The notes under the pieces: model-generated | What the model was told of the DNA's origin: nothing | Database searches by the model: none | Seen by the model: only the letters and a program-made list of their open reading frames with translations | Shown here: positions 2,122 to 51,262 of the stretch, in pieces | Numbering within the stretch: position 1 is the first letter of the stretch | How the letters are laid out: each line of letters opens with the position of its first letter | Program-made: the position numbers and the translations under genes | Sequence record: HM035025 | From: Shigella phage Shfl2 | DNA: 64,000 nucleotides | Reading direction: 5' to 3' (one strand)

Positions 2122-2146
2122 TTCAATATCCTCATTTGCCCAATTA

Positions 2147-2176
2147 ATTATACCACATCCTTGTGGTAAAGTAAAC
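2147..2176 (-). promoter_or_regulatory. T4-type early promoter (-35 GTTTAC / -10 TATAAT) reading into rIIA.1-rIIA
   Basis: Minus strand reads GTTTACT-17 nt-TATAAT; the spacer holds the palindrome CCACAAGGATGTGG; the -35 overlaps the gene 39 stop codon. Confidence 0.55.
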
Positions 2177-5895: not shown

Positions 5896-6387
5896 TTATG
5901 CATAGCGAGCTTTGCTATAGTGTTTAATCCAACTTTCAGGAATGACTTTGTATGTTCCTAAAAATACCACGTTGTACAACTTAACGCCATCTTCTACCCA
6001 CTGATCGGTAATGTATGCACACATAGCACGAGTGCGTTGTTTAGATCCTTTCTCGTCTTCAATAAATTCGAATTCATAAGGAGCAACGAACTTAATAGCC
6101 TGACCGAGTTTCCACTTAAAGTCTACACCTACATGCGAAGTATCAATCGTTTCAATTCCTTTAGCAGGAACAGCTTTCAAAAACGCAGACTCAAGAAATT
6201 TCGCACGAACATAGCCAAACTGAGGTTTAGACTTTCCATCTTTAGGAATGATACGCACTTTTACTTCAGAATCTTCATCTTTAACACCATGTTTAAGCTG
6301 AATACTTACAATTTCGACCAATTTTCCTGCTGCTTTAGAACGAGATTTATCAGATACACGAGCAATTTCACCAATATTAATAATCAT
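5896..6387 (-). CDS. motB-like protein
   Basis: 163 aa at the T4 motB position (T4 MotB ~162 aa); C-terminal region paralogous to the next ORF. Confidence 0.45.
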   Translation of the reverse strand: MIINIGEIARVSDKSRSKAAGKLVEIVSIQLKHGVKDEDSEVKVRIIPKDGKSKPQFGYVRAKFLESAFLKAVPAKGIETIDTSHVGVDFKWKLGQAIKFVAPYEFEFIEDEKGSKQRTRAMCAYITDQWVEDGVKLYNVVFLGTYKVIPESWIKHYSKARYA

Positions 6388-6462
6388 AGTTATCTCTCAC
6401 TTGTTAAAAAGATTTTATACTCCACGAGGGACCATTATACTCTGGTCCCAAGAGTTTGTAAA

Positions 6463-6963
6463 CTAGCTTACACGAACATTAATCACTGCGCTGCGAGGAA
6501 CTACAGAGTATTCTCCAGCATGAACTACATTAAGAAGTTCAACGCCATCTTCAATCCATTGGTCAGTTACCCAACCGCCGACCGGATTCGCAAATGGACG
6601 ACGAATGTAAACCGCCTTACACAACAAATCAGTCGGGTCTTCAATTTTTTCAACTGGTGCCACATACATAGAAACTAAATCCATATCAATATGGGATTTT
6701 TCCTCTTCTTTTTCAATTTCTGTCAATAGACTAAAATCTTTTTCATAAATAATAAGCGATGACACCATTCCATAATAGTTTCTAATTTCAATATACATCA
6801 TGCCGATAAGAATTCCGCTATTAACACTAATAACAGTAAAAGGATATCCGCCGGTTAAAGCAAGAAGTTCACAAAACTTATTATGAGCTGTATTAGATAG
6901 TACCGGAAAATTCTTAATTTCATCAAATTTTTTCAATTGATAAACAGCATTATTTTTAATCAT
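6463..6963 (-). CDS. hypothetical protein, C-terminal domain paralogous to motB-like ORF
   Basis: 166 aa; ...WVTDQWIEDGVELLNVVHAGEYSVVP vs ...YITDQWVEDGVKLYNVVFLGTYKVIP in 5896..6387. Confidence 0.45.
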   Translation of the reverse strand: MIKNNAVYQLKKFDEIKNFPVLSNTAHNKFCELLALTGGYPFTVISVNSGILIGMMYIEIRNYYGMVSSLIIYEKDFSLLTEIEKEEEKSHIDMDLVSMYVAPVEKIEDPTDLLCKAVYIRRPFANPVGGWVTDQWIEDGVELLNVVHAGEYSVVPRSAVINVRVS

Positions 6964-8224: not shown

Positions 8225-8499
8225 TAAATTTTCCTCGCTAAATCGCGAATTTGACCTACAGTATAATCTTGGATATAAACTTTATTAATGGGCTCATCAA
8301 TAAATTTTGCCATAGATTCAATATCTTTTTGTATCTCTTCAAGACTGTATACTATCTTTAAAGCTTTTTCGCGAATAGTAACATTATCAGGTCCTGAATT
8401 TTCTTGAATGACAGCTTTAACATTTGCCATAAGAGATTTAAACTGATGCAAACTTAATTCAATCATTAATAACCGCCTTATAAAGATGGCTAATTTCAC
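8224..8499 (-). CDS. hypothetical protein (dexA.1-like)
   Basis: 91 aa; paralogous to the next ORF (LEEIQKDIESMAKF vs LEEIERDLIALEFF). Confidence 0.4.
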   Translation of the reverse strand: MKLAIFIRRLLMIELSLHQFKSLMANVKAVIQENSGPDNVTIREKALKIVYSLEEIQKDIESMAKFIDEPINKVYIQDYTVGQIRDLARKI

Positions 8500-8719
8500 C
8501 TAAAACATAATCACTGATTGTAACAGTTTTCACTTCACCGCAAAAGAATTCTAATGCAATCAAATCTCGTTCAATTTCTTCCAATTGAAGCATTAACTTG
8601 CCTGATTCAGTTTTCACATTTTTGCGATTTTTGCTATAAGCTATTTCATAAATTTCGCTTACTTTATCTTGAAGAAGATAAAACTGGTCTTTAGTTATTT
8701 CCACGAATAGCTTCCTCAA
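8459..8719 (-). CDS. hypothetical protein (dexA.2-like)
   Basis: 86 aa; tandem paralog of 8224..8499. Confidence 0.4.
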   Translation of the reverse strand: MRKLFVEITKDQFYLLQDKVSEIYEIAYSKNRKNVKTESGKLMLQLEEIERDLIALEFFCGEVKTVTISDYVLGEISHLYKAVIND

Positions 8720-25075: not shown

Positions 25076-25312
25076 TCAAATACAAGTAGTAATTACTCCA
25101 GTAGTGCTTACACAGGTATTACCTAATTGAACACCCAACGTTCCATTAGTATTCATATGAAGATTATCATCAATTTTTGTTGATACTTTACCATTCATGT
25201 GAATAATAGTATTAGATTCAATCACATTCTGAGTGTCATTTTCAATATCAATAAATGGAACAGTTGCTAATGCAACTAAACACACTGCTAAACAACCATA
25301 AACAATTTTCAT
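25076..25312 (-). CDS. small secreted protein carried on a repeated promoter cassette
   Basis: Start at MKIVYGCLAVCLVALA (GGAG SD); signal peptide; the upstream 52 nt are identical to the leader of the AAA+ gene at 51.15 kb. Confidence 0.5.
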   Translation of the reverse strand: MKIVYGCLAVCLVALATVPFIDIENDTQNVIESNTIIHMNGKVSTKIDDNLHMNTNGTLGVQLGNTCVSTTGVITTCI

Positions 25313-25377
25313 TTTATTCTCCAAATCCGTATCAGTTGATAGTTGTATAGTACCATGGAAGAACGGGGATGTAAACA
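25305..25377 (-). repeat. repeated early-promoter/5'UTR cassette, copy A
   Basis: Minus strand GTTTACA-17 nt-TACTAT then CAACTATCAACTGATACGGATTTGGAGAATAAAATG; 52 nt identical to 51148-51199. Confidence 0.7.
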
Positions 25378-42957: not shown

Positions 42958-43461
42958 TCAAGTATTGTAAAACATTTGATTCAATCGCTTATATTGCCGA
43001 ATCTTTTGGTCAGAAAAAGAAATTTGGGTTTCAAGCCATTCAATATATTCTGCCGCAGCTTGCATCAAATTTCCTTCATAGCCATCGTTATTTTCTTGTG
43101 CAGCTAATTTAGCTAATGCGTATGGAATACGTTCACCTTGAAAATCGGCTTTAGGCTTCTGAACAACTTGATTAGTTCTCTCTACAACTTCTTCAATTTC
43201 ACCATTTTCTACTGATTCAGTATTCCACAAGCACCAATACGTAGTTGGCTTATCGTAGATGTTAATAATCTTTCCATCAGAAAGTTCAATTTCAATAATT
43301 CCAGTATCAGGTTCTATATCATCTTCACATTCTTTTGCAAGTTCACGAACTTTAAAGACAGTACCTGCACTAAGTTCCGGCCAGTAATTACATAGCTCTT
43401 TATCAGCACGATTAATTCTAAACCACTTATCTACTGTAATCATGTCCCATCTCCATATCAA
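42958..43461 (-). CDS. hypothetical protein (size and position compatible with T4 pin)
   Basis: 167 aa; synteny only. Confidence 0.35.
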   Translation of the reverse strand: MIWRWDMITVDKWFRINRADKELCNYWPELSAGTVFKVRELAKECEDDIEPDTGIIEIELSDGKIINIYDKPTTYWCLWNTESVENGEIEEVVERTNQVVQKPKADFQGERIPYALAKLAAQENNDGYEGNLMQAAAEYIEWLETQISFSDQKIRQYKRLNQMFYNT

Positions 43462-43565
43462 TTAAGTCATTTATTGTAGGTTCATTATATACTGTTTCTT
43501 CATCAGTGTAAACCGGTTCTTCCGGCTCTGGCTCTACAGTTTCCCATCTAGCCGCCCACCAAGGT

Positions 43566-43775
43566 TTAACCCCGAAGCTTATTAAGTTCTTCATAATCAA
43601 TCCAGGATTCTAGTCCTGATGGCAAATCAGATTCAATTTCCCAAAGAAGTTCTTCAATTTTCTGAAGACGATCTAGTTCTTCGGCTGGAATAGTAACCAT
43701 TGACGGAGCTCGTGATACATTAATATCGTAAATCATATTTACCCCAGTTTGACCATGCAATCGCCGTATTTCCAC
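43566..43775 (-). CDS. hypothetical small protein
   Basis: 69 aa ORF. Confidence 0.4.
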   Translation of the reverse strand: MEIRRLHGQTGVNMIYDINVSRAPSMVTIPAEELDRLQKIEELLWEIESDLPSGLESWIDYEELNKLRG

Positions 43776-43954
43776 TTAGAAATAGACTTTTCACCGTTAG
43801 AATAATAAACTTCGAGTTTAGCACGATTATTTTTAATTTGAATAACCTTTGCTGTCATCAAAGTTCCATACCCATAGTAAACTGCAACTTCATCACCTAC
43901 ATATACCGCGCTTCCGCGGTAATCGTGAATATAGTCAGTTCCTTCGAGCATCAT
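43739..43954 (-). CDS. hypothetical small protein
   Basis: 71 aa ORF. Confidence 0.4.
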   Translation of the reverse strand: MMLEGTDYIHDYRGSAVYVGDEVAVYYGYGTLMTAKVIQIKNNRAKLEVYYSNGEKSISKWKYGDCMVKLG

Positions 43955-44458: not shown

Positions 44459-44762
44459 TTTCTTCTCGGTCAAATCGGTGTTTACAATGGCGGCATTTAT
44501 AACGAAGATTACTAGTCTGCCAATGGACCAATTGCACCTGTTCAGTTCCACATTCAGGGCAATTAGGAACGTTTTTAGAAGCCCTTTCGCGACGTTTAAC
44601 CATAGCCATAATGGCATCCCATGCTGGAGGTTTAAAATCTAAATCGTCACAACCATGAATCTTTCCACGCATTTCCATATCATCTTCCTCACCAGCCATA
44701 ATAATTTTAATTAAACTGGAATTACTTGAAGCTGCAATGTCTTCTAATAGACGCTTTTTCAT
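44445..44762 (-). CDS. zinc-ribbon protein
   Basis: 105 aa; CPEC...CRHC pairs. Confidence 0.45.
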
Positions 44763-45688
44763 TTCAATACCTCAATAGCATTACGTAAACCATTTGCTTT
44801 TGCATTAAGAGCTTTTAACAATTTGGTGTGTTCTGCAATTTGGGCTTCAACTTCAATCAAACGAGCATTGAGATATTCGCGTTCTTCACTCAGATTATCA
44901 ACCTTTTCTACTTTAGGCTCTTTTACAACTGTCTTATATGTATTAGGGTTCTTCAGTTTAATTAGAATGCGTGAACTGTATAACATTGAACCATTATCTT
45001 CGGTTTCGTCATACATTTCTACTACATCCATAATTTTTAACATCATGCGGAGTTTATAAGACAACGAACGAATAGTTTTGTTGTGCTTATTAATTTCTTT
45101 AGCTGTCATGGTGCCGAGATTACGTGAGTAATAATAAGGAACCTGGATATTAATTAATACTGATGAACCACCTGGCTTGTGTGTTACTTCATCAGCAATA
45201 ACCCAATCCTTAACATGAACTGTATTTGTACGGTCATCGCCCGCGGTAAATAGTTTGCGAGCATGCTTAAAAAGCATATTCACTTGGTCATTGAATTGAC
45301 AAGCAAATTTATCAGCAAATTTAGTTTCAGGAATGGTAGATAACCAATCAGCCAAATGGGTCTTTTTAACATCGTTAACAATAGTAAATTCAACCAAATC
45401 AGTTATAGATGTCTCAGATTTAATAAAGCTCGGCTTCATAAAGTTTTTAATGTTATCGCGAGCTACAGTAGAAGATAACATACGAGAACGTTTAAACCAT
45501 TGAAGCAAATTGCCCAACGAATGAGAATAAGCGTTTTGAGTATCTTTACAGATATGATTTTCCTGGCCAACATATTGAAGGAAATCACGAAGAATATTAT
45601 TGATTACTGCTCTGTGTCCGATCTGATAATTACGGTGTTTAGTAATAAGACTGTCAAAATAATCAATATAATGTTTACGAGTTTTCAT
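44759..45688 (-). CDS. paralog-array protein 1 (C-terminal coiled coil)
   Basis: 309 aa; starts MKTRKHYIDYF; shares a central block and C-terminal heptad-rich tail with the next three ORFs. Confidence 0.55.
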   Translation of the reverse strand: MKTRKHYIDYFDSLITKHRNYQIGHRAVINNILRDFLQYVGQENHICKDTQNAYSHSLGNLLQWFKRSRMLSSTVARDNIKNFMKPSFIKSETSITDLVEFTIVNDVKKTHLADWLSTIPETKFADKFACQFNDQVNMLFKHARKLFTAGDDRTNTVHVKDWVIADEVTHKPGGSSVLINIQVPYYYSRNLGTMTAKEINKHNKTIRSLSYKLRMMLKIMDVVEMYDETEDNGSMLYSSRILIKLKNPNTYKTVVKEPKVEKVDNLSEEREYLNARLIEVEAQIAEHTKLLKALNAKANGLRNAIEVLK

Positions 45689-45740
45689 ATTCTTCTCACT
45701 TGGTTAATGATTTATACTCCGAGCCATCCCTGGCTTTAAA

Positions 45741-46742
45741 TTACTTAATTAACTGTAAAGCTTGTTCAAGACGATCAAGACGATTAACGGATTCTTCCCA
45801 AATCTTTTTAGCCTGCTCATATTCTTTCTGCGCTTTATTAGAAATTTCTAGAACTTCTTTATAAGCTTTTTCTAGTGCAATAACTTCTGGACGAATTTCT
45901 ACCGGTTCAGGAGAATCATCAAGATTATCCATTAGTTCCTCAAGGGTAGTTTCTTCTTTAGGAGTATTCACAATTTCATCACATTTTTGTTGGTAAATTT
46001 CTTTATCAGTCGGTGAGTACGCACACTTTACTTCACGAAGACTAACTACAATTTTATATCCTTCCCAACCGCATATATTCTTAAAAGGATATGTATGAAT
46101 ATTTTCTACTGTTTCCATACAAAGTAATGCAGTCTCTAACTGACGAGTTATAGTGCTAGCAATTGAGAAAAATTTATTAATATTCTTTTGGTTAGCGTTT
46201 GGTGTAAAAAATCCATAATTCACAAAAATAGCTACTTTATTTTCATCAAGCTCATATTCTTTTACGATAATCATATCAGAAGCCAAAGGATGAATTTGAC
46301 GATAATCACCATAACATAATTTAGAAGCTGATTTTAGAATTTGCTTCTTAAAAAGTCTGAAATTACTAATCCAACGACGAGTAAAAATATTCTCAGGGTC
46401 TTCTTTATTATTAAGATGATAAGAATTAACATCACCGAACCAATTATATCCTACTACATCTTTGGTTCGTTTAATTTCTTTCCCAAAATTACCAAGAATA
46501 TCCCGATTAACCAAATATGAAAGAAGACGAGACTCTTTAAAGGTTTTCTTGATAACATCTTTATCTACACGACTAGAAATTTTACGAATTTCATGAATAA
46601 ATTTAGTAGAAGAAACAATACTTGCATCAACACTATTGAGCCATTGATTGATAATAGAAAGAACGATATTTTGACCAAACATCGGTATAGCTTTATCATC
46701 AATAACGCTATTGAATGATTTGATATATTCGTTACGAGTCAT
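45741..46742 (-). CDS. paralog-array protein 2
   Basis: Start probably MTRNEYIKSF (333 aa); central block RWISNFRLFKKQILKSASKL. Confidence 0.55.
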   Translation of the reverse strand: MTRNEYIKSFNSVIDDKAIPMFGQNIVLSIINQWLNSVDASIVSSTKFIHEIRKISSRVDKDVIKKTFKESRLLSYLVNRDILGNFGKEIKRTKDVVGYNWFGDVNSYHLNNKEDPENIFTRRWISNFRLFKKQILKSASKLCYGDYRQIHPLASDMIIVKEYELDENKVAIFVNYGFFTPNANQKNINKFFSIASTITRQLETALLCMETVENIHTYPFKNICGWEGYKIVVSLREVKCAYSPTDKEIYQQKCDEIVNTPKEETTLEELMDNLDDSPEPVEIRPEVIALEKAYKEVLEISNKAQKEYEQAKKIWEESVNRLDRLEQALQLIK

Positions 46743-46770
46743 ATTAATCTCCTCATTAGAAAGTAAGAAC

Positions 46771-46800
46771 ATTATACCACATCCTTGTGGCGAAGTAAAC
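46771..46800 (-). promoter_or_regulatory. T4-type early promoter, near-identical copy of the rIIA.1 promoter
   Basis: Contains the same 19 nt TTATACCACATCCTTGTGG and AAGTAAACTA as 2148-2180. Confidence 0.55.
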
Positions 46801-47825
46801 TAGTTTAGTGCATTTAGTGCATTGTTCAGTTTAGAACGTTGCTTTGTCAGATTTTGAACCCTTGACTGAGCTTGTTCTAACACCTTTTCAGCTTCTAGCA
46901 CTTCATTGGTCGCTTTAAAGAGTTCATCATCTACTGCCTTAAGAGACTTCTCAATCGCGTCAGCGTGCCATTTTTCTACAGGTTTAAGACTCGGATTTTC
47001 AACAGGAAGAAAATTCACTTTATTGAATTTCCATGCATCATTATTACCTGAACTATACATCCAAAATTTAGAATCGTTTGATGAGCAATTGGATAAATTT
47101 AAATTTAAGTTATCTTGCACTTCTTGCTTTTTCTCTTGCGGGACTTCGTCCTTTCTCAAAAAATCGTATTTAAATGAAACAATCATATCAAGTTCATATG
47201 TTGTCGTATCTAACTTAAATCGTTCAAAACGAGGTAAAATCTTAGATTGAACAGCAGCAACAACATCCATATACTTAAATGCTTCTGTCAACTGTGATTT
47301 AAGGCATTCACAAATTGAAAGAGAATTTTTTGTATTAGGTTTAAAGCTAATTCGTGCAGTTCTATTATTTTCTTTTAATGGTCTTACTTCCATCTGAAGA
47401 GTATAACCATCAAATTTCAGATTCTTTAAGTTAATATCAGAACCTTTTAATCGACTCGCAGTTGATAAAATTTGCTTTAATTGTCTACGGAACAGAGCAA
47501 TAAATCTCCATTCAATACGATAATGATTTGGATTGAAAAATCCAGATGATAAATCGACCTTACTTTGACCAACGCCTTGAACAAATAGAGGATTTTTATA
47601 ATCAATAGTTTTACAGAAATCGGTGAGCTGCTCACGAGCAGTCATTTGTGTAATATACCCCGCTTTACTAAAATGACGTAACCATTCACTGCTATTCATA
47701 TATTTAAAGTGAATATCACGATTAACTTTATCAGGGTCTAAATTATTTTGGCACAAAAATGTCATAACATCACGAGTATAGCTGGCATTACGAATCATAT
47801 CTTCAATTTGAGAACGAGTTTTCAT
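46800..47825 (-). CDS. paralog-array protein 3
   Basis: 341 aa; starts MKTRSQIEDMI; central block EWRFIALFRRQLKQILSTASRL. Confidence 0.55.
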   Translation of the reverse strand: MKTRSQIEDMIRNASYTRDVMTFLCQNNLDPDKVNRDIHFKYMNSSEWLRHFSKAGYITQMTAREQLTDFCKTIDYKNPLFVQGVGQSKVDLSSGFFNPNHYRIEWRFIALFRRQLKQILSTASRLKGSDINLKNLKFDGYTLQMEVRPLKENNRTARISFKPNTKNSLSICECLKSQLTEAFKYMDVVAAVQSKILPRFERFKLDTTTYELDMIVSFKYDFLRKDEVPQEKKQEVQDNLNLNLSNCSSNDSKFWMYSSGNNDAWKFNKVNFLPVENPSLKPVEKWHADAIEKSLKAVDDELFKATNEVLEAEKVLEQAQSRVQNLTKQRSKLNNALNALN

Positions 47826-47833
47826 GGTGTTCC

Positions 47834-48760
47834 TTAAGATTTAAGTAAATCAACAATTTTAATTAACTTTTCACGCTCAGATTTAGCTTTACTACTCAAT
47901 CCAGATAGTCTAAAAATTTCATCATCATATTGTTGAATAGAAATATTCAGCTCTTCAATCTGTTTATTAAAATAATCAATTTGTTCAGAATGTTTTTCGT
48001 TACTACGAACTGGTACAGGTTTTGTAGGCAATGTAGTTGAACTGGATTCATTCGGGCGATAAATTAAAATACAACTTGAACCAATAGGGCATTTTGCACC
48101 AGATGAATATTCTAATGTTCCAGCTTCTTTTAAAACTTCAAAAGCTAAACAGAGATGATGCCCCATATTAACATAATCTGTAGAGTGAGCTCTGATGTAA
48201 TAATCATCGCCACGAATACTAAATTTAAAGCATTTAAGGTCTTCTGTATTATTGGTCTTAAAAATCATTTGTTTATCTAGACCTTTAGCTAATCGAGCGC
48301 CTAATGCTAATAATCGGCGTTGATTTTCCCACAAATCCGCAATCATTTGATCGAATGATAATTTTGGCATCAGTCGACCATAAAGGTCATATCCTTTATT
48401 ATAATTACGAAGAATTTCACTCGCATTAATACGAGACAACGCTCCAATTTTATTAAGGGCTTTCATAATGCGATTAGATAAACTCATTCCAGACCCGTTT
48501 GTTCGCTGCAAATGTTTTTCTAATCCAAATCCAATATCAACTTTAAATTTATCTAAAATTTCGGCATGAACATCTCTGTCAATAACATTCAAATCCAAAG
48601 TTGAGTTAAATCTATGAAAAAATTTATCTGGCTCTGCACTGCGAAATACAGTCCATTCATTCATCATTTTTTTATTAACTAAAGATTTAATTACTGCATT
48701 GACATTATTAATTACTACTGACATATTTTCCTCACTCAATTTCAATTTTACTAAATACAC
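47834..48760 (-). CDS. paralog-array protein 4
   Basis: 308 aa; central block LWENQRRLLALGARLAKGL; C-terminal coiled coil. Confidence 0.5.
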   Translation of the reverse strand: MYLVKLKLSEENMSVVINNVNAVIKSLVNKKMMNEWTVFRSAEPDKFFHRFNSTLDLNVIDRDVHAEILDKFKVDIGFGLEKHLQRTNGSGMSLSNRIMKALNKIGALSRINASEILRNYNKGYDLYGRLMPKLSFDQMIADLWENQRRLLALGARLAKGLDKQMIFKTNNTEDLKCFKFSIRGDDYYIRAHSTDYVNMGHHLCLAFEVLKEAGTLEYSSGAKCPIGSSCILIYRPNESSSTTLPTKPVPVRSNEKHSEQIDYFNKQIEELNISIQQYDDEIFRLSGLSSKAKSEREKLIKIVDLLKS

Positions 48761-49139
48761 AGAATATGATTGAACAGACTACATAAGCACCACACACAGA
48801 TTGAACTAATACCATCCCAAAGAACCAAACAATATTATCAAACAGTGTCTGTTTTACGTCGAAAGGACGTAAACTTACAGTAATATTATCACCTTTTTCT
48901 ATTGAAGAATACATCTCTGGGGAAATATATTCACTAAATCTATAACCGTCTTTAAGTTCATATACGGCAATAAACGATAAACTAGACCCTTTTCCTTGTG
49001 TTCCTGTAATGGTATTAACTACAGTAACATCATAATCTTTATAATGCATATAATCATTAATTGCGTAATAACCGTATGCAACTACTACACATAAACAACA
49101 TATCAATAAATTCAATCTTTTAATTATCAACTGTTTCAT
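48732..49139 (-). CDS. membrane protein
   Basis: 135 aa; hydrophobic segments at both ends. Confidence 0.45.
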   Translation of the reverse strand: MKQLIIKRLNLLICCLCVVVAYGYYAINDYMHYKDYDVTVVNTITGTQGKGSSLSFIAVYELKDGYRFSEYISPEMYSSIEKGDNITVSLRPFDVKQTLFDNIVWFFGMVLVQSVCGAYVVCSIIFCVFSKIEIE

Positions 49140-49194: not shown

Positions 49195-49722
49195 TTATGC
49201 GAGTACCGTCTTTAACCGTTCTTCAAACTTCCGAAGAGTATTTTGGCGTTCAGCTCTTTGCTTTTTGTAAGTTTCAATACGCTCTGAAATGAGAGTGTAT
49301 CGTTCATTTACTGATTCTTTCATAAAATCAGGAATTTCACGAGAAGCTTTAATCTCATCAAATTTATCAATAACAGCTTGCTCTTCAGCAATTAAGTTAT
49401 CATACATTAAAATATCTTTCTTGATGAACTCAATATCTTCTTGAGTTACACGAGATAATTTAGATGCTTTATCCTTTTTGTACTGTTCGTTAGTATCACG
49501 AGACCAGTGTAATGTACGATTTTTATTCGTATTTTTGTAAATTTCTACAATACCAATTTCATCAATAATAACGATCCAATTCCAACGGGATTTGTAAATT
49601 TGTCCTCCATCAACAGTGATTTCACCTCCGATTGAGATGTCATTAAAGAACTTACTCTGTGCTTCAGATTTAAATTTACCATCGTTGTAATTTACTAAGT
49701 TGAAAATATCTTTAGCGTTCAT
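49195..49722 (-). CDS. hypothetical protein carried on a promoter cassette
   Basis: Start at MNAKDIFNLV (175 aa); the track's N-terminal extension is translation of the cassette leader. Confidence 0.5.
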   Translation of the reverse strand: MNAKDIFNLVNYNDGKFKSEAQSKFFNDISIGGEITVDGGQIYKSRWNWIVIIDEIGIVEIYKNTNKNRTLHWSRDTNEQYKKDKASKLSRVTQEDIEFIKKDILMYDNLIAEEQAVIDKFDEIKASREIPDFMKESVNERYTLISERIETYKKQRAERQNTLRKFEERLKTVLA

Positions 49723-50186: not shown

Positions 50187-51155
50187 TTATTTCAGAAGAG
50201 TAACTTCAGCGATTTCTTCCCAACCGTTTTTGTCGGTCATAATAAAGTCAGCAAGATAAAGAGCAGTACGCAGTGAAACATTGCGTAAACGATTAACATT
50301 AACTTTCATCCATGATAATGCTTTATAAGTTTCTTCATCAGAAAGACCGCGCTTTTGCATCATGTCAGTTGAAAGAATAACATCTTCAACCCTGACCATA
50401 ATTTCTTCATTAGTGTGAACACCCAAATCTAAATAAACTGAGCGGGACACTAATGCTTGTAAGTGTGGAGCAAGTTTAGTACCACGGTCTAATTCGCGGT
50501 CAATGTCAACGTTTGTGATAAAAACAATCGTTCCTTTAAATTCAAACTCACGGTCAATGCCTTTTTCTTCTAAGTAAGAAGATGCAGTGCTCCAGCAGAC
50601 TTTACGGGTCTCTCCGGTGTCCAGAGCGGCTTTTAGAAGATTAAGAATGTCCATATCAGAGAAAACATCCACATCATCAATCAAAAGGACAGAATTCTCT
50701 TCACGATTATTCCAAAGCTGCTCATAAAGACCAATACCAGAGATTTTACCATTAATGCTTTTATATTCAATGTATCCAATATCATTTGCTTTATTTAAAG
50801 CTTTATCTAAAGAATACGTTTTACCAATACCTGCTGCGCCAGAGATAATCAATGAACGAATATTTCCGTTAATAATACCATTCGTCATCATTCCCATAAC
50901 ATTAAATCTTTTATTAATGCGGGTTTTCATATCTTCATACGATTCTTTAACTTCTTCAACTTTTACACCATCATATGAAATATCTGATTTGTAAACCCAA
51001 ACACCGCGACGTTTACCGTCAATTTCAACAAAAACTTTACCATCTCCTTGTGCATCTACCGGAGCATTATCTGGGAACCATTCGCCTAAGAGCTCAAAAG
51101 TTCCAGAGATTTCTTTACCGAAGTAGATACCCTTATTGATAGTTACAGTTTTCAT
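50187..51155 (-). CDS. P-loop NTPase, AAA+-like
   Basis: Start at MKTVTINKG (322 aa); Walker A GAAGIGKTY, Walker B VLLIDDVD, sensor-1-like IVFITN. Confidence 0.6.
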   Translation of the reverse strand: MKTVTINKGIYFGKEISGTFELLGEWFPDNAPVDAQGDGKVFVEIDGKRRGVWVYKSDISYDGVKVEEVKESYEDMKTRINKRFNVMGMMTNGIINGNIRSLIISGAAGIGKTYSLDKALNKANDIGYIEYKSINGKISGIGLYEQLWNNREENSVLLIDDVDVFSDMDILNLLKAALDTGETRKVCWSTASSYLEEKGIDREFEFKGTIVFITNVDIDRELDRGTKLAPHLQALVSRSVYLDLGVHTNEEIMVRVEDVILSTDMMQKRGLSDEETYKALSWMKVNVNRLRNVSLRTALYLADFIMTDKNGWEEIAEVTLLK

Positions 51156-51262
51156 TTTATTCTCCAAATCCGTATCAGTTGATAGTTGTATAGTACCATC
51201 CAAATCCGTATCAGTTGATAGTTGTATAGTACCATAAAGCTTTATGCCTGTAAACCGTTTTG
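51148..51262 (-). repeat. promoter/5'UTR cassette with internal tandem duplication (2 x 36 nt)
   Basis: CCAAATCCGTATCAGTTGATAGTTGTATAGTACCAT occurs at 51164-51199 and 51200-51235 and again at 25321-25356; gtaaac -35 at 51251-51256. Confidence 0.75.

Follow-up and report, generated by a model that had tools for sequence, protein, structure and literature searches.

The 64,000-nucleotide stretch of DNA analyzed here, referred to as the window, comes from Shigella phage Shfl2 (record HM035025) and is part of a Tequatrovirus, i.e., T4-like, genome. This report is concerned with four consecutive open reading frames (ORFs) on its minus strand, between positions 44759 and 48760, which an initial annotation made from the sequence alone had described as a tandem array of diverged paralogs, and which correspond to the genes nrdC.3, nrdC.4, nrdC.5, and nrdC.6. 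To our knowledge, T4 is the best-studied lytic phage, and for most of its ~130 accessory genes no role is known. For NrdC.5 a role has been found: its T4 copy counteracts Dsr1, a SIR2-domain protein of the host thought to deplete nicotinamide adenine dinucleotide (NAD). As described below, the four proteins form one superfamily, which is restricted to T4-like (Straboviridae) phages, and because NrdC.3, NrdC.4, and NrdC.6 are paralogs of a protein known to neutralize Dsr1, they become candidate inhibitors of host immunity.

The four genes and their setting

Over the 5.2 kb around the array, the DNA is 98.3% identical to that of phages slur02, slur04, and R5505, and matches to it occur in 742 phage records. 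The start of the window falls within rIIA, and rIIA.1 is the 67-amino-acid (aa) ORF at 1918-2121. All four ORFs of the array are present on the minus strand as initially annotated, with 309, 343, 341, and 308 aa in the mechanical ORF list (44759-45688, 45741-46772, 46800-47825, and 47834-48760, respectively). Their names were assigned by position and identity, along with the annotation of phage NR1; nrdC.7 lies upstream of the four, and nrdC.2, nrdC.1, and nrdC lie downstream.

Two of the listed start codons need revision. The nrdC.4 homologue most likely starts at the ATG at 46742, behind the ribosome-binding site GAGGAG, which gives a gene at 45741-46742 and a protein of 333 aa; the ATG of the longer version (the ORF to 46772) sits within the -10 box of the nrdC.4 promoter. 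Similarly, the nrdC.6 homologue most likely starts at the ATG at 48724, behind GAGG, and then spans 47834-48724 and encodes 296 aa, while the listed ORF begins at a GTG (48760) within nrdC.7. Both shorter starts agree with the residues at which the PHROG matches begin (11 and 13) and with the phage NR1 annotation, and since the shorter nrdC.6 start is favored, the array ends at about 48724 rather than at 48760. The other two genes keep their listed limits: the nrdC.3 homologue at 44759-45688 (309 aa; assigned to phrog_1435 with E 1e-116 and annotated in phage NR1) and the nrdC.5 homologue at 46800-47825 (341 aa; Pfam family DUF7235).

With respect to the T4 proteins, the identity is 96% for NrdC.4, 94.4% for NrdC.5, and 97% for NrdC.6. 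The T4 protein that acts against Dsr1 has its orthologue in NrdC.5 of the window, which occupies the same position and has the same length to within one residue. NrdC.3 is just 60% identical to its T4 counterpart and therefore belongs to a different allele class.

Homology and predicted fold of the four proteins

The view that the four ORFs are diverged paralogs was borne out by sequence profiles and predicted folds, with alignments that span the globular parts of the proteins and extend beyond the coiled coil alone. The closest pair is NrdC.3 and NrdC.4, which already match by BLASTP (E 1e-7, 25% identity over 226 aa) and by hhalign (probability 97.9%). Regarding NrdC.5, a first hhalign match with NrdC.3 was non-collinear (residues 129-189 against 264-320) and was discarded, having arisen from the presence in the NrdC.5 alignment of P0056, a natural NrdC.5/NrdC.3 fusion protein. 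The NrdC.5 profile was thus rebuilt without P0056 and with distant NrdC.5-like proteins of other genera, and the stand-alone comparisons were repeated; the conclusions did not change. The clean NrdC.5 family aligns with the NrdC.4 family over 249 collinear columns (probability 94.4%, E 9e-8, residues 66-326 of NrdC.4 against 50-327 of NrdC.5), and the combined NrdC.3 and NrdC.4 families match NrdC.5 at 95.7%. In a MAFFT alignment the three families have in common an N-terminal TR, the motifs F..SR.LS..VAR..L..FGK, RW...FR....IL..A.KL..GD.R, and QL..AL..M..VE, and the C-terminal helix.

NrdC.6 is more distant. Its direct hhalign comparison with NrdC.3/4 or NrdC.5 is weak (E 0.01-0.03, probability 2-4%), and the connection emerges through intermediates from other phages. 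One of them, P0240, was found both by the NrdC.3/4/5 profile (E 7e-4 across the whole library) and by the NrdC.6 hidden Markov model (42 bits). Two bridging profiles, with no sequence from the genus of the window (Tequatrovirus), were then considered: group K, composed of P0240 and gp085 of Enterobacter phage IME523, and group M, composed of P0234 and P0236. Group K matches NrdC.6 at 97.8% and group M at 98.1% over 278 columns; group M in turn matches NrdC.3/4 at 98.4% and NrdC.5 at 97.5%, and K matches NrdC.5 at 96.9%. When NrdC.6 was merged with K, and NrdC.3/4/5 with M, the two profiles aligned at 97.1% (E 8e-11) over 214 columns. As a control, the profiles were run against every window ORF with 70 aa or more (192 in total): K ranked nrdC.6, nrdC.5, and nrdC.4 at the top, and M ranked nrdC.5, nrdC.3, and nrdC.4, with no fifth paralog elsewhere in the window among these ORFs.

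AlphaFold models were built for NrdC.4 (mean predicted local distance difference test score, pLDDT, 83; predicted template modeling score, pTM, 0.68) and for NrdC.6 (mean pLDDT 78, pTM 0.65), and the order of their secondary-structure elements is identical. Several N-terminal helices are followed by a helical hairpin and a beta hairpin; then come a long helix and another beta hairpin, and a linker modeled with low confidence leads to a long C-terminal helix. In a Foldseek search of BFVD, the NrdC.4 model matches a bona fide NrdC.6, that of phage JS10 (E 4e-5, probability 1.0). In addition, the NrdC.4 and NrdC.6 models have seven matches in common, all Straboviridae proteins of 300-370 aa, from the phages Acj61, Acj9, fHyAci03, PM2, IME523, Cronus, and PS2, i.e., T4-like phages of Acinetobacter, Pectobacterium, Enterobacter, Erwinia, and Serratia. 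Given the homology through intermediates and the matching predicted folds of NrdC.4 and NrdC.6, the similarity within the array is not merely compositional, nor are these two folds unrelated. That NrdC.6 is no true homologue, its likeness arising from a coiled-coil tail and a helix-rich composition, has in its favor the weak direct comparison, the missing M(K)TR start, and the separate placement of NrdC.6 in Pfam and PHROGs, yet it is highly improbable, because even the weak alignment is collinear through the globular part with three conserved motifs superposed, and the intermediates and models point the same way.

As for the architecture, the M(K)TR start proposed for all four proteins applies to three of them (MKTRKHY in NrdC.3, MTRNEY in NrdC.4, and MKTRSQ in NrdC.5) but not to NrdC.6, which begins with MSVVINN. 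The conserved central block is real, and it aligns column for column in the profile-profile comparison. In NrdC.4 it reads RWISNFRLFKKQILKSASKLCYGDY (residues 123-147; 46302-46376, minus strand), and its equivalents on the same strand lie at residues 127-152 of NrdC.3 (45233-45310), 105-130 of NrdC.5 (47436-47513), and 131-152 of NrdC.6 (48269-48334); in both AlphaFold models this block forms the helical hairpin. The heptad-rich C-termini were found in all four as well: over the final 42 residues, 75-92% of the a/d positions are hydrophobic in the best register, a fraction attained in 0-1.6% of 2000 shuffles. These segments are encoded at 45744-45869 in nrdC.4, 44762-44887 in nrdC.3, 46803-46928 in nrdC.5, and 47837-47962 in nrdC.6, again on the minus strand. 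The modeled terminal helices cover residues 285-332 in NrdC.4 (48 residues) and 243-272 plus 277-295 in NrdC.6 (30 and 19 residues), and the heptad pattern suggests that the helix probably makes the protein oligomeric. Judging from the models, the predicted architecture comprises a helical N-terminal part, an alpha/beta core around the conserved helical hairpin, a disordered linker, and the heptad C-terminal helix. The window also encodes an unrelated protein with such a tail: NrdC.8 (49195-49722) has a C-terminal heptad helix with an a/d fraction of 0.75, reached by 0.5% of shuffles, and it bears no relation to the array in profile searches and is 100% conserved in six comparable Tequatroviruses.

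Parts of this family are already on record in the databases. The NrdC.5 ORF matches Pfam PF23882 (DUF7235) with 399.4 bits against a cutoff of 30, over its full length (1-341), and the NrdC.3, NrdC.4, and NrdC.6 ORFs leave this model unmatched in the Pfam scan, so that 46800-47825 is the sole DUF7235 member in the array. Both NrdC.3 (E 1e-116) and NrdC.4 (E 4.5e-169) match phrog_1435, and 64 of 64 NrdC.4 homologues carry a precomputed match to PF26897 (Phage_T4_Y04OP); the kinship of NrdC.3 and NrdC.4 is therefore database-recorded, both being within phrog_1435 and Phage_T4_Y04OP. NrdC.6 matches phrog_2257 (E 2.2e-151), and PF26899 (Phage_T4_Y05B) is carried by all of its 105 homologues. Collectively, PF26897, PF26899, and PHROGs 1435, 2351, and 2257 already contain NrdC.3 with NrdC.4, NrdC.6, and (in PHROGs) NrdC.5, but these databases treat them as three separate families of unknown function, whereas the present analysis links them all.

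Searches for a recognizable activity were negative. In the Pfam scan of the four proteins only NrdC.5 found a match (DUF7235), with no enzyme domain, and neither an enzyme signature nor a nucleic-acid-binding one was found for any of the four. For NrdC.3, two sub-threshold matches were discounted, one to the PHL domain (20.7 bits, below the cutoff of 23.7) and one to Phage_int_SAM_1. PDB sequence searches with one protein and two profiles returned nothing, and no likeness to any solved chain was found. The NrdC.3/4/5 profile, run against a representative library of 1.84 billion proteins, retrieved only 19 at E up to 0.001, with no cellular relatives among them. In full-text searches of the literature, DUF7235 goes unmentioned, and nrdC.3 to nrdC.6 are named in only four papers.

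Copy number, alleles, and selection

The family occupies one syntenic site, adjoining nrdC, and its copy number differs among genera: one copy in IME523 (Kanagawavirus), three in C6, MN01, and pEK20, and four in Tequatrovirus. In the three-copy phages, the slot beside nrdC.2 is occupied by an NrdC.4-like gene in C6 and MN01 and by an NrdC.3-like gene in pEK20. The same genera have, between the NrdC.6-like and NrdC.5-like genes, an ORF of 67-71 aa with two hydrophobic stretches (4857-5060 in L004 and 4826-5041 in L005). The repeated duplication suggested initially calls for some qualification: three lineages (NrdC.6-like, NrdC.5-like, and NrdC.3/4-like) are already present in other genera. Because the gene in the third slot elsewhere may be of either NrdC.4 or NrdC.3 type, the fourth copy of Tequatrovirus may stem from two alleles placed in tandem and not from a new duplication.

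Genes of the array are also lost. Phage ACG-C40 (5805-6216) has a deletion that fuses the initial ~70 codons of nrdC.5 with the final 72 of nrdC.3, with loss of nrdC.4, and the fusion protein P0056 joins residues 145-270 of NrdC.5 to residues 137-309 of NrdC.3; the junctions of these two fusions lie at non-corresponding positions in the paralogs. In phages Manna (H105) and Pinarejo (H119), what survives is limited to C-terminal remnants of nrdC.4 or nrdC.6. Copies at least 80% identical to the window protein number ~500 records for nrdC.6, 494 for nrdC.5, and 463 for nrdC.4. The array genes are accessory, and dispensable in the laboratory. A further alteration occurs in the T4 reference (NC_000866, ~8480-8700), where nrdC.6 is frameshifted near its 3' end, after ...NKQIEEL. 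The frameshift exchanges the last ~37 residues, which make up the heptad helix, for 16 unrelated ones, leaving a protein of 275 aa instead of 296; the conserved ending ISIQQYDDEIFRLSGLSSKAKSEREKLIKIVDLLKS is still legible in another frame, and the change may be either a mutation of the laboratory strain or a sequencing error.

Selection was estimated from seven Tequatroviruses with the NG86 method, as the ratio of nonsynonymous to synonymous divergence (dN/dS) both gene-wide and in 40-codon windows. The diversifying selection that had been proposed was not detected, as dN/dS is nowhere above 1: the gene-wide values are 0.32 for nrdC.3, 0.21 for nrdC.4, 0.21 for nrdC.5, and 0.16 for nrdC.6, and the highest 40-codon window across the array reaches 0.69. 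The flanking genes evolve far more slowly at the protein level (nrdC 0.01, nrdC.1 0.06, nrdC.8 0.00, nrdC.9 0.05, nrdC.10 0.03), and the array values are 3 to 30 times those of the flanking genes in which some amino-acid change occurs. On average, then, the array genes are under purifying selection, with a local rise in protein divergence. The conserved hairpin is the most constrained part, with dN/dS of 0.00-0.05 in nrdC.5 and nrdC.6, and the sliding windows place the fastest change in the first 40-60 codons and in some segments of the core. Between genera, NrdC.5-like proteins diverge fastest, at 22-27% identity, compared with 43-52% for NrdC.4-like and 33-48% for NrdC.6-like proteins. Next to the array, nrdC.7 (48732-49139), a hydrophobic 135-aa ORF that precedes nrdC.6 in Tequatrovirus and is distinct from the small ORF of the three-copy genera, has a dN/dS of 0.21, raised like that of the array genes.

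Among the four genes, nrdC.3 occurs in deeply diverged allele classes. By identity to the window protein, the phage collection divides into a class of at least 90% (356 records), a class of 75-79%, which accounts for the majority of the 207 records with 60-80% identity, and a class of ~60%, the T4 and T2 type, formed by the 84 records under 60% and a few slightly over that value. From one class to another, dS is ~1 and dN ~0.3, and the flanking genes have dS of only 0.08-0.22, which indicates that nrdC.3 alleles are exchanged by recombination. A gene of the Mosigvirus pEK20 (5998-6942) is 79% identical to NrdC.3 of the window, compared with only ~60% for T4 and T2, which share the genus of the window. 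Within the gene, the first ~40 codons have a dS of 0.15 and the remainder 0.5-1.3, and this low initial value suggests a recombination boundary inside nrdC.3.

Known function and proposed role

The initial annotation likened the pattern to that of host-range or anti-defense factors, and for one member, T4 nrdC.5, there is experimental backing. Srikant, Guegler, and Laub reported in 2022 that a laboratory-evolved deletion mutant of T4 no longer grew on E. coli ECOR17, that deletion of dsr1 from the host gave this growth back, that cloned dsr1 made K-12 resistant to the mutant, and that plasmid-expressed T4 nrdC.5 rescued the growth of the mutant on cells with the Dsr1 of ECOR17 (PMC9391042). 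In that work, nrdC.5 is described as an early gene; it is the only one of the four tested, and its paralogs are not discussed. More recently, a 2026 study reported that the sensor domain of Dsr1, common to Avs7, is triggered by the phage major capsid protein and that it occurs in thousands of other defense proteins with different effectors (PMC13581612). The window protein at 46800-47825 is the orthologue of T4 NrdC.5 (Y05A_BPT4; DUF7235) at 94.4% identity and the other three are paralogs of it, so that the anti-Dsr1 activity shown for the T4 copy may, by sequence likeness, apply to the window copy; the published work on T4 NrdC.5 gives no mechanism, structure, or binding partner.

Some other phage systems are instructive in comparison. 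DSAD1, from the SPbeta-group phages, is described as likewise neutralizing a SIR2-domain, NAD-depleting defense (PMC10973363, PMC10981675, PMC11087589). Its target is DSR2 rather than Dsr1, and the likeness is one of functional analogy, not of family membership. The dmd-tifA-adfA "anti-toxin-antitoxin (anti-TA) island" (PMC9391042) and Gp49.2 (PMC13096335), both of T-even phages, also represent early, dispensable accessory genes clustered in variable regions, each acting on one host defense; those genes are small and mutually unrelated, whereas in the array a single fold of 300-340 aa is present four times.

The interpretation that we favor, with moderate confidence, is that NrdC.3 to NrdC.6 are a single superfamily of early, dispensable, stoichiometric inhibitors that act by binding to host immune proteins. 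Accordingly worded as a mechanism, NrdC.5 would be made early, ahead of the build-up of capsid protein, and would bind Dsr1, preventing either its activation or its degradation of NAD, as DSAD1 blocks DSR2. For NrdC.3, NrdC.4, and NrdC.6, the targets would be further defense proteins, or different variants of this kind of sensor. A common scaffold would be provided by the conserved helices together with the coiled coil, and the specificity for the target would come from the faster-changing N-terminal 40-60 residues along with the core loops. The copy number rose from one to three to four across genera, at a fixed site beside nrdC. Direct binding, oligomerization, and the anti-defense roles of NrdC.3, NrdC.4, and NrdC.6 are what we infer, and binding is the most economical model given the lack of a catalytic signature, the conserved scaffold with variable surfaces, the probable oligomerization helix, and the early synthesis.

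Several points weigh against this interpretation. The experimental phenotype is confined to NrdC.5, whose effect on Dsr1 may be indirect. NrdC.6 is tied to the other three through intermediates and predicted folds only, its direct alignment being weak; the Foldseek TM-scores are moderate (0.4-0.5) with high root-mean-square deviations, and the fold comparison covers NrdC.4 and NrdC.6. Oligomerization is read from the sequence pattern of the C-terminal helix only. Finally, with no dN/dS above 1 in a small sample of seven genomes, the signature of an arms race is not demonstrated.

Three other explanations were considered, in addition to the non-homology of NrdC.6 dealt with above; that one, the non-immune role, and the hetero-oligomeric complex are each less likely than the binding inhibitors just described. 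First, the genes could have a host-takeover or housekeeping-like accessory role not directed at immunity, such as the modulation of host metabolism or of a phage process, which we regard as unlikely, if worth keeping in mind; to the same unlikely degree, the anti-Dsr1 effect would then be indirect, e.g., by delaying or masking the capsid-protein trigger or by sparing NAD. Purifying selection over whole genes fits such a role, the published evidence on NrdC.5 is genetic, and the triggering of Dsr1-type sensors by the major capsid protein (PMC13581612) makes interference with the trigger conceivable. On the other hand, the genes are lost both in natural isolates and in laboratory evolution with viability on K-12 kept, the family is found in T4-like phages only, with a variable copy number and NrdC.5-like proteins that differ so widely across genera, and no enzyme or nucleic-acid-binding signature accompanies it.

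Second, and here the proposal is quite speculative, the array might be a set of specialized blockers of one modular class of capsid-sensing host sensors, in which NrdC.5 would plug the sensor of Dsr1 and the others would plug diverged versions fused to different effectors. If that were true, the array would track the sensor repertoire of the hosts, and the coiled coil would match the oligomeric state of the target.

Third, the four proteins might assemble into one hetero-oligomeric complex through their related C-terminal coiled coils and have a single joint function. The heptad helix with a similar ending kept in all four is in line with this idea, and so are the genes themselves, which sit next to one another on one strand, with little or no space between them, and are partly co-transcribed. 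We consider it very doubtful, however, since plasmid-borne nrdC.5 by itself rescued the T4 deletion mutant in the presence of Dsr1, some phages have just one copy (IME523) or three, natural Tequatrovirus variants lack nrdC.4 together with parts of nrdC.5 and nrdC.3, and the frameshift of the T4 reference removes the C-terminal helix of NrdC.6.

Returning to the binding inhibitors, what was already known comprises the genes, the function of T4 NrdC.5, and, in databases, the kinship of NrdC.3 and NrdC.4. New here are the superfamily uniting all four proteins, its structure and copy-number history, and the three candidate counter-defense genes; the advance is modest. NrdC.3, NrdC.4, and NrdC.6 become specific and cheaply testable counter-defense candidates, and a family with one to four copies across T4-like genera offers a system for studying how targets are switched by duplication. 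For mechanistic work on NrdC.5, the conserved helical hairpin, the variable N-terminus, and the coiled-coil tail constitute a domain map. Therapeutic T4-like phages vary in the nrdC.3 allele and in the presence of array genes, which is of practical relevance to the prediction of their host range.

Promoter and neighboring genes

The initial annotation had placed one member behind a duplicate of the rIIA.1 promoter, and this proved accurate for nrdC.4: the segment upstream of it (46770-46800, minus strand) agrees with that at 2146-2176 (minus strand) in 28 of 31 bases, a match for which none is expected in shuffles. The element is of the textbook T4 early type (GTTTAC, 17 nt, TGnTATAAT), reading GTTTAC-N17-TGGTATAAT, and its -35 region adjoins the stop codon of nrdC.5. 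In an alternative register (repeat family D5) the agreement is 30 of 32 bases, and the other early promoters of the window reach 72-78%. The likeness is limited to ~34 nt, with unrelated flanks, and the pair also occurs in T4, T2, PST, sutha, and fFiEco06; by its sequence, it is best described as a shared promoter cassette and not as the duplication of a larger segment.

The neighborhood of the array holds other genes connected with host defense. Pin, encoded there, is annotated as a Lon inhibitor, and Gp49.2, encoded beside nrdC, inhibits the OLD defense in T6 (PMC13096335). The window has no homologues of T4 gp49.2 and gp49.3, and two small ORFs (69 and 71 aa) lie instead between 49.1 and nrdC (43427-43954); the region beside the array is therefore also variable in its anti-defense content. 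NrdC.10 (50187-51155) has a Walker A motif (GAAGIGKT) and weak, sub-threshold matches to AAA_14, AAA_22, STAND-type nucleoside triphosphatase models, and phage clamp-loader PHROGs; with its dN/dS of 0.03 it is near-invariant in Tequatroviruses. Lastly, a 55-nt stretch occurs with 98% identity ahead of two unrelated genes, at 25302-25356 and 51145-51199 (minus strand), namely a small ORF that starts with MKIVYGCLAVCLVALATVP, a signal-peptide-like beginning, and nrdC.10. It spans the -10 region of an early promoter along with the 5' leader and the opening codons (ATGAAAA), and a partial third copy is found at 51181-51235.

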